Source: a virus (Duplodnaviria; Caudoviricetes). From it: a stretch of 61,727 nucleotides of DNA. How positions within the stretch are numbered: the first letter of the stretch is position 1; each line of letters begins with the position of its first letter. The notes under the pieces are model-generated. The model saw nothing but the letters and a program-made list of their open reading frames with translations, did not search any database and was not told the DNA's origin. This document shows, in pieces, positions 23,825-25,916 of the stretch. Location: the IMG/VR virus record IMGVR_UViG_3300034102_002694, positions 1-61,727 of that record, one strand, 5' to 3'. A program made the translations under genes and the position numbers.

Positions 23825-24151
23825 ATGGGCAAACACTATCTTCTAAATCTCTTTGGATGCTCATTCGTTTTGTTAAACGATGAGCATTATCTTATGGAAC
23901 TCTTAGAACAAGCTGCAGCTGCAAGTGGTGCAACTGTATGTCAAACTATTTTTAAAAAGTTTGATCCACAGGGAGTTACCGTTTTATGTTTGTTATCTGA
24001 AAGTCACATAAGTATTCATACATGGCCAGAAGAAGGTAAAGCTGCTTGCGATGTCTATACTTGTGGAGATTGTGATCCAAAAATTGGTTGTGATATGATT
24101 ATTGAACAACTATATGCAACAAATCATACACTAAGTTATATTGAACGATAA
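23825..24151 (+). CDS. speD: S-adenosylmethionine decarboxylase proenzyme
   Basis: MGKH, F.PQGVT, LLSESHISIHTWPE (E-S autocleavage), DVYTCG. Confidence 0.93.
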   Translation: MGKHYLLNLFGCSFVLLNDEHYLMELLEQAAAASGATVCQTIFKKFDPQGVTVLCLLSESHISIHTWPEEGKAACDVYTCGDCDPKIGCDMIIEQLYATNHTLSYIER

Positions 24152-24180: not shown

Positions 24181-24501
24181 ATGCTCTCTACACAATATCG
24201 TCTTCGACTTGAAGCAATCTGCGAACGAATTGTAAAAGGTGAATCAGTAGAATTAAGTGAAATGATTTGGGCAGAGAAACTTGCCCAAGTAAATAGAAGT
24301 GCTGGAACACTTCTCCGCCAAGCAAGACGTAAAGCAGAGAATCCCGACATGCAGGAAGGTGGTTTAGATGATTTTCTGAACCAACTTGATATTGGTGGAG
24401 TTGGTCATGAAGGGAAAGGTATCCGTGGATTTGATACAGTAGATGATATTATAGACTTCTTTACTGAAGATAAACCAGATGATTGGAGACAGAGAGATTA
24501 A
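24181..24501 (+). CDS. Conserved cyanophage hypothetical protein
   Basis: MLSTQYRLRLE.IC..I...MIWAEKLA...DWRQRD. Confidence 0.7.
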   Translation: MLSTQYRLRLEAICERIVKGESVELSEMIWAEKLAQVNRSAGTLLRQARRKAENPDMQEGGLDDFLNQLDIGGVGHEGKGIRGFDTVDDIIDFFTEDKPDDWRQRD

Positions 24502-24522: not shown

Positions 24523-24528
24523 ACTTAT

Positions 24529-24557
24529 TTGCATATATAAACCAACAGGTCTATAAT
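24529..24557 (+). promoter_or_regulatory. Sigma70-type promoter for the riboswitch leader
   Basis: TTGCAT-17-TATAAT; predicted start about 24564, immediately before aptamer 1. Confidence 0.75.
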
Positions 24558-24564
24558 GACCTCA

Positions 24565-24608
24565 CGTTCATCTGGTTTAACCAGACGGAAGTAAGCCGAC
24601 TCGGAACG
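24565..24608 (+). ncRNA. Glutamine riboswitch-like aptamer 1 (glnA/Downstream-peptide family)
   Basis: P1 CGTTC/GAACG, P2 TCTGG-tttaa-CCAGA, core CGGAAGTAAGCCGAC. Confidence 0.75.
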
Positions 24609-24611
24609 GAA

Positions 24612-24780
24612 CGTTCATCTATGGAAGCACTCATTCTTTCATGTTTACAGGCACAATTAATTGCTGGGAGAGTTCTAAAAGTGAACATTCCCAAACAAGC
24701 AAAGAATGATCTCATTTGGGAGATTAAACAGATCTCCCCAAAGGAGTGTAAAATAGACGCAAAAGCCGACTGAAGGAACG
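24612..24780 (+). ncRNA. Glutamine riboswitch-like aptamer 2 with greatly expanded P2 loop
   Basis: P1 CGTTC(24612)/GAACG(24776), P2 TCTAT(24618)/ATAGA(24753), core CGCAAAAGCCGACTGAAG. Confidence 0.7.
24621..24773 (+). CDS. 50-aa ORF nested inside aptamer 2
   Basis: MEALILSCLQAQLIAGRVLKVNIPKQAKNDLIWEIKQISPKECKIDAKAD; ATG in the P2 5' strand, TGA in the aptamer core. Confidence 0.55.
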   Translation: MEALILSCLQAQLIAGRVLKVNIPKQAKNDLIWEIKQISPKECKIDAKAD

Positions 24781-24812
24781 CTCTTTAGCCTCAAAATTAA
24801 GGAGAAAACCTA

Positions 24813-24944
24813 ATGTCTAAAGTAGTATATCGTGGTGTCGAATATGACACAGAAGTTCGCCGCCATCAACAACAGACACAACAACCACAACAATATAATG
24901 AAACATATCGTGGTGTTAAGTTTGTAAAGGAGGAACAAAAATGA
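24813..24944 (+). CDS. YRG-motif peptide (DUF4278-like, putative glutamine synthetase inactivating factor-like)
   Basis: MSKVVYRGVEYDT...NETYRGVKFVKEEQK (two YRG motifs); AAGGAG SD; directly downstream of the aptamers. Confidence 0.75.
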   Translation: MSKVVYRGVEYDTEVRRHQQQTQQPQQYNETYRGVKFVKEEQK

Positions 24945-25042
24945 ATACTTACTTTGTTCGTTACCTCAAGAATAAATCGAAGAGGGAACAGTTTCTTCAA
25001 ATCGCACAACTGAATATGGCAAAGCAACCACAAGTTGTTTAA
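24941..25042 (+). CDS. Small basic peptide (33 aa)
   Basis: MNTYFVRYLKNKSKREQFLQIAQLNMAKQPQVV; GGAGG SD, ATGA coupling. Confidence 0.6.
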   Translation: MNTYFVRYLKNKSKREQFLQIAQLNMAKQPQVV

Positions 25043-25047
25043 TGTTC

Positions 25048-25074
25048 AAGGGAGGTTTACACCTCCCTTTTTTT
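25048..25074 (+). terminator. Rho-independent terminator closing the riboswitch operon
   Basis: GGGAGGT-ttac-ACCTCCC plus T7. Confidence 0.9.
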
Positions 25075-25283: not shown

Positions 25284-25916
25284 ATGACTGTAAAACTTAT
25301 TTCGATTACTCCCGATGCAGAACAAACAATGGCGTATATTGCGCGAGTTTCTAATCCTGCGAATCAAGACAACCAAAACTATGCCAAGTTGCTTGCTTAT
25401 TGTATTAAGCATAATCATTGGTCTGTGTTTGAACAGTCTTCTATGACTCTTGAGATTGAAACGAATCGTGGTATCGCGGCTCAAATTTTACGACACCGTT
25501 CGTTTACATTTCAAGAGTTTTCGCAACGGTATGCAGACACCAATCTATTGAGTTCTGATATTCCTTTGCCAGAACTGCGTAGGCAGGACACTACGAACCG
25601 CCAGAACTCGATTGATGACTTGGACGAGGAAAGGGTCTTCGTGATGAATAAGATGATTCAAGACCTGTTTCGTGACTCTCAGGAGGTCTATAACTATCTT
25701 CTAGGTCAGGGTGTTGCTAAGGAATGTGCTCGTTTTGTACTTCCTCTTGCAACTCCTACTCGTATTTACATGACTGGTTCTTGCCGTAGTTGGATTCACT
25801 ATATCAATCTTCGTTCTGCACACGGAACTCAAAAGGAACATATGGACATTGCCCTTGCTTGTAGAGAAGTTTTTAAAGAACAATTCCCATCGGTTTCAGA
25901 AGCTCTTGAATGGTGA
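25284..25916 (+). CDS. thyX: Flavin-dependent thymidylate synthase
   Basis: HWSVFEQ, QILRHRSFTFQEFSQRY, ECARFVLP, QKEH. Confidence 0.97.
   Translation: MTVKLISITPDAEQTMAYIARVSNPANQDNQNYAKLLAYCIKHNHWSVFEQSSMTLEIETNRGIAAQILRHRSFTFQEFSQRYADTNLLSSDIPLPELRRQDTTNRQNSIDDLDEERVFVMNKMIQDLFRDSQEVYNYLLGQGVAKECARFVLPLATPTRIYMTGSCRSWIHYINLRSAHGTQKEHMDIALACREVFKEQFPSVSEALEW

Follow-up and report, generated by a model that had tools for sequence, protein, structure and literature searches.

A putative nested glutamine sensor with a microprotein gene inside its inner hairpin in a T4-like cyanophage

Can a metabolite-sensing RNA hold a complete gene within its own fold, and what would this mean for the nucleotides that ribosome and ligand have to share? 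This question is raised by a small operon (24528–25069) in a 61,727-nucleotide (nt) DNA fragment of a T4-like cyanophage (IMG/VR record IMGVR_UViG_3300034102_002694, positions 1 to 61,727; estimated completeness 29%), hereafter called the window, whose closest isolates are the freshwater Synechococcus phages DSL-LC02, S-SRM01, and DSL-LC03. The initial annotation had placed a 50-codon open reading frame (ORF) in the hairpin loop of the second of two tandem glutamine aptamers, upstream of a so-called YRG peptide. Our analysis points to another arrangement—a double glutamine sensor in which one unit lies inside the other and the inner hairpin holds a microprotein gene. We assign a probability of roughly 60% to this overall explanation.

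The predicted elements of the leader, with helices named P1 and P2 and the Shine-Dalgarno sequence abbreviated as SD, are as follows.

24565–24569, + strand: outer P1 5′ strand CGUUC, pairs with 24776–24780; invariant in 94/94 sequences
24571–24585, + strand: outer P2 hairpin with UCUGG (24571–24575), loop UUUAA, and CCAGA (24581–24585); from sequence and ORF-less relatives
24586–24593, + strand: outer linking strand CGGAAGUA, with G24588 as long-range partner of C24781; from the 94-sequence comparison
24594–24601, + strand: shared helix 5′ strand AGCCGACU, pairs with 24764–24771; from covariation
24603–24616, + strand: closed inner P1 hairpin with GAACG (24604–24608), loop GAA (24609–24611), and CGUUC (24612–24616); strands invariant in 94/94
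24618–24622, + strand: inner P2 5′ arm UCUAU, holding the A and U of the start codon; from pair conservation in 139 units
24621–24773, + strand: nested gene of 50 codons and UGA (MEALILSCLQAQ...KECKIDAKAD), encoding a microprotein with two cysteines and a helical-hairpin fold, probably a member of phrog_504; from ORF list and comparison
24627–24630, + strand: possible, weak extension of inner P2 by four base pairs (bp), GCAC with GUGU at 24746–24749; from RNAalifold on 43 same-length units
24753–24757, + strand: inner P2 3′ arm AUAGA, whose first three bases are codon Ile45 and whose last two begin codon Asp46; from pair conservation in 139 units
24758–24763, + strand: inner linking strand CGCAAA, with C24760 pairing with G24609; from the 94-sequence comparison
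24764–24771, + strand: shared helix 3′ strand AGCCGACU, coinciding with the Lys-Ala-Asp codons and the first base (U) of the stop; from covariation
24772–24781, + strand: GAAG (E-loop side), outer P1 3′ strand GAACG (24776–24780), and long-range partner C24781; from sequence and comparison
24781–24804, + strand: expression platform of the downstream YRG gene, with anti-SD CUCUUUAG (24781–24788), pairs with UUAAGGAG (24797–24804), which holds the SD AAGGAG (24799–24804); from folding and tail comparison

Relatives were collected by two pattern scans. A 15-nt pattern from the start of the ORF found at least 119 loci in viral contigs, and a pattern of the 3′ core, which is neutral toward the ORF, found at least 120 further viral loci and five genuine contigs from metagenome-assembled or single-cell genomes. 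In the scan of genome contigs, eight of 13 matches were dismissed as chance, lying in GC-rich genomes with no CGUUCA nearby. Among the matches listed, the first pattern gave a family-like ORF of 49–55 codons in 101 of 122 cases—the remainder being lost at contig ends or unrelated chance matches—and the second gave 124 loci, 79 with an ORF of 49–66 codons, 38 with a short hairpin and no ORF, and seven truncated or unclear. Both scans together yield 139 unique ORF-bearing units among the matches listed. The ORF-less form is also carried by phage S-CREM1, where it is annotated as glnA. Translated searches (tblastn) of isolated phages with queries that are short and divergent reached four records from the window peptide and one from a marine member; unlike these, a 34-nt core DNA query recovered cyanophage isolates.

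Is the nested ORF a gene? Its ATG (24621–24623) lies inside the 5′ arm, its codons run through 24770, and its stop TGA (24771–24773) is located within GACUGAAGGAACG of the conserved GACUGAAGG core. Here, the initial annotation was accurate, as it was for the two arms—which enclose 130 nt—and for the 5-nt loop of the first unit. It had also called for tests of frame conservation, selection, and pairing of the arms, and all of these turned out in favor of the gene and the hairpin. The frame is open in 139/139 units, which were chosen by RNA motifs alone, and ORF lengths vary from 49 to 66 codons by in-frame insertions and deletions. In the three freshwater isolates, the ORF likewise remains open, differing by synonymous substitutions and by a single 3-nt insertion that preserves the frame, and it is annotated as a coding sequence in DSL-LC02, S-SRM01, and P-HM2. 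For 50 distinct sequences of 50 codons, the ratio of nonsynonymous to synonymous substitution rates (dN/dS) has a median of 0.22 (290 pairs with an unsaturated proportion of synonymous differences, pS), and the shifted frames give 0.78 and 2.19. The entropy over codons 3–42 is 0.97/0.61/1.27 at the three codon positions of this sample, and the other reading frames are open in 0/50 sequences. Both cysteines are invariant among 64 diverse members.

The hairpin enclosing this ORF is conserved as well. Anchored on CGUUCA and CGCA, the five pairs of inner P2 are kept in 139, 139, 138, 133, and 129 of the 139 units, with pairs 3–5 swapping among U-A, C-G, and A-U, so that the arms covary as UCUAU/AUAGA, UCCCA/UGGGA, UCCUC/GAGGA, and UCCUU/AAGGA. 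The four-pair extension shows compensatory changes in two of its four pairs, and its 3′ side coincides with the Cys43 codon region. A further hairpin within the loop, which had been described as GGGAGAT-7-ATCTCCC, does exist one base away from where it was placed (GGGAGAU 24717–24723, 7 nt, AUCUCCC 24731–24737). None of 42 same-length relatives keeps six or seven of its seven pairs, marking it as a peculiarity of this phage, and no conserved internal helix was found in the ORF loop. Taken together, the nested ORF is very probably a real gene under purifying selection within a real hairpin.

Gene and sensor are tightly registered. The ATG follows the C of CGUUCA by 9–11 nt in 139/139 inner ORFs, and the stop is the core UGA in 137/139 units. 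Codons 45–50 (DAKAD*) are near-frozen at all three positions (entropy 0.18/0.33/0.36), which argues for a constraint from the RNA, and the residue preceding Asp46 tracks the arm—Ile with UCUAU, Trp with UCCCA, Glu with UCCUC, and Lys with UCCUU. A natural swap at one locus (L219:311-508, − strand) places a protein of the family otherwise found in the outer hairpin into the inner one, whereupon its tail changes from ...GRK to ...DAKAD; hence, the tail appears to be set by the RNA core and not by the protein. As far as codon entropies can tell, the C-terminal DAKAD* is dictated by the RNA. In one cluster representative of 116 amino acids (P0061), the core UGA is replaced, and the nested protein reads through DAKAD-W-RNG into the YRG peptide, fusing both ORFs in frame.

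The encoded protein probably belongs to a family that is more readily recognized in its relatives. phrog_504 matches 58/64 aligned relatives (best E value 5.2e-25), and the match of the window's own protein is weak (E 0.0068, 17.1 bits, residues 6–48). A profile search of cluster representatives gave 305 clusters at E ≤ 1e-3. Its top match, P0001 (2888 amino acids, 22 stretches), was rejected as a repeat protein with a QAQKNEITQEF motif, whose score sums up chance likeness. The AlphaFold (AF2) model comprises two helices, 8–20 and 25–38, at a predicted local distance difference test score of 84. Foldseek found no match in the PDB at E ≤ 0.001, a two-helix hairpin being too simple to place; a Pfam search of the nested protein returned nothing, and the ESM Atlas had no usable named cluster for it.

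How, then, do the two units that flank and contain this gene fold? The initial annotation's picture of two tandem aptamers raises a difficulty within the window itself. Unit 2 opens with CGUUCA (24612–24617). GAAG is missing from unit 1, which does contain CGGAAGUA. Unit 2 contains GAAGGAACGC and no GGAAGUA, with CGCAAA at the position of CGGAAGUA; each unit is thus only half of a canonical core. The E-loop, formed by CGGAAGUA and the GAAG before the P1 3′ strand, is obtained only by joining 24586–24593 and 24772–24775. In the solved structures, the long-range pair connects the third base of the linking strand with the base after GAACG, being G:C in glutamine-I and C:G in glutamine-II riboswitches (PMC6698751). 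Unit 1 of the window offers a G and is followed by a G, and unit 2 offers a C and is followed by a C, so that only crossed partners can pair.

For the wider comparison, we used 94 ORF-bearing sequences, the window included (set A3), and a second set of 22 ORF-less marine relatives. The crossed outer long-range pair is GC in 55 and CG in 39 sequences and unpaired in 0/94; the crossed inner one is G:C in 88/94, with six others. A tree built solely on the interior of the ORF requires 12 or more changes of the long-range state, with the two partners in agreement at 138/138 loci. AGCCGACU occurs in both units, and its two copies pair together as an 8-bp helix shared between the cores. The end pair of this helix is UA in 76, AU in seven, GC in four, and UG in two sequences, unpaired in none, and in the ORF-less relatives AU in 14 and UA in eight, again unpaired in none. 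Another pair is GC in 78, GU in nine, AU in five, and other in two; a further one is AU in 90, GU in two, CG in one, and other in one. A deletion variant retains the helix as AGUCG with CGACU or CGGCU. In the ORF-less relatives, the outer P2 is paired in 100% of cells, with compensatory changes in 4/4 pairs. Gene conversion acting on the two direct copies of AGCCGACU was considered and rejected as the source of the covariation, as the paired changes lie at different repeat positions and are complementary, not identical.

This comparison shows a putative canonical glutamine-I core in the outer unit, formed by 24565–24601 and 24764–24781. At the level of sequence, it has the P1 strands, a P2 directly after CGUUCA, the E-loop strands, and the long-range pair. 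Its third helix (24594–24601/24764–24771) opens, by the same comparison, into a predicted inner, circularly permuted core, which is built from the downstream half of unit 1 and the upstream half of unit 2 and bears the gene in its hairpin. The inner P1 is closed by a loop of 3–21 nt across the relatives, in the window with G24609 as the long-range partner. Beyond the inner hairpin, the gene continues across the inner linking strand and along the shared helix until its stop in the outer E-loop. We regard the nested fold as likely, and favor it over side-by-side aptamers.

Several points weigh against the nested sensor or against its proposed function. Both copies of each P1 strand (CGUUC and GAACG) are invariant in 94/94 and 22/22 sequences, and the choice of partners hence depends on one long-range pair and on covariation at three positions in the shared helix. 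This helix bears two near-constant mismatches (C.A in 88/93, A.C in 74/89), and the inner long-range pair is absent in 6/94 sequences. On supported branches, 5/5 independent pairs point in the same direction, which for only five pairs amounts to a sign-test p of 0.0625. An inner P1 closed by a 3-nt loop that also yields its G to a long-range pair may be strained. At viral contig locus L102, an ORF-bearing inner unit occurs without unit 1, the prior 70 nt being free of aptamer motifs; either the locus has decayed, or its unit functions alone. A covariance model built on the 22 ORF-less relatives with the nested structure (R1) did not span the window unit, giving truncated or locally ended alignments of 24.5–24.8 bits—because the 130-nt insert is too costly, which makes this result uninformative on the fold either way. 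On the functional side, the nested AUG lacks an evident Shine-Dalgarno sequence, and a ribosome terminating at 24771–24773 would cover the anti-SD and could turn the downstream gene on, the opposite of the reciprocal control considered below.

What might such an arrangement do? With the AUG in an arm and the stop in the core, a ribosome on the nested ORF must melt the sensor. Hence, we soundly infer that translation of the nested gene and the folded, ligand-bound sensor would be mutually exclusive on one RNA. Downstream of the sensor, the anti-SD/SD hairpin comprises 8 bp at −5.7 kcal/mol (from the fold of an identical tail, L039) and begins with C24781, the nucleotide of the outer long-range pair; in 39/46 unique C-type tails, the SD pairs with the six nucleotides directly behind the sensor. 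For the related gifB leader, glutamine binding is modeled to melt such a helix and switch translation on (PMC6212724). Applied to the phage leader, a ribosome initiating at 24621 would cover or open the inner P1 and the arm, and one elongating to 24773 would unwind the 3′ arm, the inner linking strand, the shared helix, and the E-loop. At high glutamine, both cores would be locked and the nested AUG hidden, and C24781 would be pulled from the anti-SD hairpin, turning on the downstream IF17-like YRG peptide as in the gifB proposal. At low glutamine, the outcome would be reversed and the nested gene read, each passing ribosome resetting the sensor. Such a reciprocal control by glutamine of the nested protein versus the IF17-like peptide is plausible and is the mode of action that we prefer, with its chances somewhat below even.

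Four other explanations compete with the nested double sensor. The gene might be a passenger: the hairpin loops of this riboswitch would tolerate any insert, a compact phage genome would have parked small genes in them, and letters would be shared without functional coupling, with the sensor working solely on RNA that is not being translated, or ahead of the first ribosome's arrival. This is consistent with the 38 ORF-less loci among the 124 that share the core, which imply a sensor working without the gene, with the co-occurrence of both forms within the same RNA libraries, and with homologous microprotein genes residing in either hairpin like a movable cassette. A passenger, however, would hardly keep a fixed AUG spacing in every inner (139/139) and outer (47/47, 10–13 nt) ORF; a spacer with its own ribosome site is never present, and in 137/139 units, the ORF enters the core and stops on core nucleotides instead of in the loop, so that we consider this explanation unlikely. 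Coupling in the same direction is the other way of taking the geometry at the stop. Here, reading of the nested gene would itself expose the downstream ribosome site: the ribosome stopping at 24771–24773 would sit on the anti-SD at 24781–24788, the sensor would gate the nested AUG, and both genes would rise and fall together. From the stop, it is 8 nt to the anti-SD and 39 nt to the YRG start, and most C-type tails have the anti-SD/SD hairpin. Yet ORF-less relatives keep the tail and the downstream gene, which means that the platform works without an upstream ORF, and the reading frames of both ORFs stand in no fixed relation to each other (61/44/32 for the three possibilities); this coupling therefore seems quite improbable.

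The two remaining explanations concern fold and coding. Two independent aptamers side by side with the ORF in the second P2 loop, the arrangement originally proposed, would agree with the usual order of CGUUCA, hairpin, and GGAACG in each unit and with the Rfam alignment of unit 1 alone, and loci with CGC and GAACG-G satisfy their long-range pairs under either fold. This assignment nevertheless leaves the long-range pairs unpaired in 54 and 55 of the 94 sequences and the local two-pair P3 broken in 14/22 ORF-less and 12/89 ORF-bearing ones, so that an own P1, P3, and long-range pair per aptamer is not what is found. Each unit is only half of a core, and it is the nested pairs that are kept with compensatory changes; covariation thus favors nested cores, and independent aptamers are very improbable. 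That the 130 nt merely form an untranslated, structured RNA spacer, open by chance, is an explanation with a chance close to nil: the lack of an evident Shine-Dalgarno sequence and the weak 4-bp extension of the hairpin would fit it, but a low dN/dS, variation at third positions, in-frame length changes, invariant cysteines, and the lack of a conserved internal helix all speak for coding.

Compared with known systems, the nested double sensor is closest to the type-1 glutamine riboswitch (glnA RNA, RF01739), as exemplified by the Synechocystis gifB/IF17 leader (PMC6212724). The common elements are CGUUCA, a hairpin, CGGAAGUA, a third helix, GAAGGAACG-C, and the long-range G:C; moreover, the nucleotide of the long-range pair starts the anti-SD stretch in the gifB proposal as it does here. 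As in gifB, the leader precedes a DUF4278-like YRG peptide. The phage RNA differs in that its third helix opens into a second sensor core instead of a hairpin, its hairpin holds a gene, and its canonical core is assembled from sequences 180 nt apart. Rfam accordingly scores the leader as a sub-threshold fragment: its only match is RF01739 at 24563–24612 (33.3 bits versus a gathering threshold of 35, E 2.4e-5), nothing reached the gathering level, and no match extends across 24612–24782. The inner core resembles glutamine-II (Downstream-peptide motif, RF01704) in having CGC with GAACG-G and no E-loop (PMC6698751). Glutamine-II is a pseudoknot, whereas the phage inner core would be a three-way junction in which a loop caps P1, and RF01704 gave 17.3 bits versus 33 (E 0.092) on unit 1 only, which leaves the locus outside this class.

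Tandem glycine riboswitches bear two ligand-binding cores in one leader. The same is described for tandem glnA RNAs in Weinberg 2010 (PMC2864571). Unlike in these, the phage cores are not consecutive; one lies within a helix of the other, and this helix is shared. The ORF itself recalls a different precedent. Homing-endonuclease ORFs sit in peripheral loops of group I introns and are likewise complete ORFs in a loop that the fold tolerates. The phage ORF, unlike these, starts in a helix and uses helix arms and the ligand-binding core as codons, and the host RNA of intron ORFs is a ribozyme, whereas the phage RNA is a putative metabolite sensor. A further parallel is found in leader-peptide attenuators and regulatory upstream ORFs, where the reading of a short ORF reshapes RNA structure farther downstream. 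In contrast to these, the phage product is apparently a conserved protein family under purifying selection, with invariant cysteines and, in the window, four scattered Gln in 50 residues, and the RNA itself would sense glutamine.

The rest of the operon comprises the following elements.

24528–24557, + strand: promoter-like site TTTGCA-18 nt-TATAAT, 10/12 consensus matches; consensus match only
24813–24944, + strand: YRG peptide of 43 codons, IF17-like; from PF14105 DUF4278 and phrog_5049 matches
24941–25042, + strand: 33-codon ORF overlapping the YRG stop (ATGA) and preceding the terminator; weak phrog_18219 match, E 0.14
25048–25069, + strand: terminator-like hairpin with T run, closing the operon; from sequence

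By consensus only, the promoter-like site would start the transcript at about 24563–24565, the first base of the sensor. A TATAAT within 25 nt of the outer CGUUCA is present in 45/71 window-type relatives, and in the window, it is flanked by an inverted repeat GGTC/GACC. The YRG peptide matches phrog_5049 (E 3.6e-12) and, under the cut-off of 25.3 bits, Pfam PF14105 (DUF4278; E 7.2e-4, 20.3 bits). The 33-codon ORF is conserved in S-SRM01, where a coding sequence is annotated at the corresponding place. The operon lies between a phrog_507 gene (24181–24501) and thyX (25284–25916). The arrangement of the ORF within the leader recurs in three isolated freshwater phages. A 108-codon ORF just upstream (23825–24151, + strand) resembles by eye an S-adenosylmethionine decarboxylase proenzyme and may be speD, as we presume. 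speD is a known auxiliary gene in cyanophages.

In RNA libraries, 17 runs are listed with small shares (0.04–0.06 of words), and in four libraries, contigs of relatives at 80–99% identity cover leader and ORF; such contigs carry no strand, transcript-end, or translation information, DNA may be present, and no conclusion on expression is drawn from them. In run X13, a freshwater RNA library, contigs join 24619 to 24756 with only seven or nine letters between. These joined contigs represent ORF-less relatives that co-occur with ORF-bearing ones in the sample.

The inner hairpin is not the only one with a gene. Among the matches listed, 63/222 parsed loci have an ORF in the outer hairpin, too, with a length of about 61–72 codons (e.g., L010:657-860 (−) and L137:209-409 (+)), whereas the outer hairpin of the window (24571–24585) is short and without ORF. 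The outer ORF starts within the narrow distance from CGUUCA given above and encodes a hydrophobic N terminus and two cysteines (phrog_6471 in 11/15). Marine members end on GRK* (GGA-CGC-AAG-UAA), so that the stop UAA lies inside the conserved AAGUAAG core. Outer and inner families are homologous, aligning cysteine to cysteine at an hhalign probability of 95.7% (E 9.9e-9). In P-HM2, the three genes are PHM2_179, PHM2_180 (a phrog_504 gene), and PHM2_181. In the 32 nt upstream of the outer CGUUCA, loci with a CGC outer linking strand—mostly marine—show GT-N10-AC in 58/86 unique regions, compared with a mean of 4.6 after shuffling, and GTA-N8-TAC in 20/86. The latter we take to be the NtcA-site consensus. 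Window-type loci have GT-N10-AC in 3/71 (window region compared: 24533–24564).

In the literature covered, which excludes Ames & Breaker 2011 and Ren et al. 2015, we found no description of a gene inside an aptamer or of a nested double core. McCown 2017 (PMC5473149) lists only two glutamine aptamers in cyanophage genomes and concludes that riboswitch use is rare in phages. With the viral loci that either of our two scans recovered, this picture of rarity is probably an artifact of models that are unable to span inserts; if this holds true, riboswitches would be widespread among cyanophages and escape the family scans. Aptamers are treated as noncoding, whereas here, a ligand-binding core would encode the last residues and the stop of a protein, with the start codon in a sensor helix. 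This would offer a natural system for the competition of ribosome and ligand over the same nucleotides and—if the sensor works as proposed—a new class of gene switch, in which an aptamer regulates an ORF that is physically inside it. A nested, strand-sharing double core also changes how "tandem" glutamine riboswitches are to be modeled and may alter the view on the origin of their cooperativity.

For the phage, the full proposal is that one RNA serves as a two-site glutamine sensor and as coding sequence for up to two microproteins, with glutamine choosing between the products, a nitrogen-starved host leading to the two-cysteine microprotein, and ribosomes resetting the sensor; we put it forward tentatively, as in its entirety it is rather doubtful. 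The IF17-like peptide and the microproteins point to a phage control of host nitrogen assimilation during infection.

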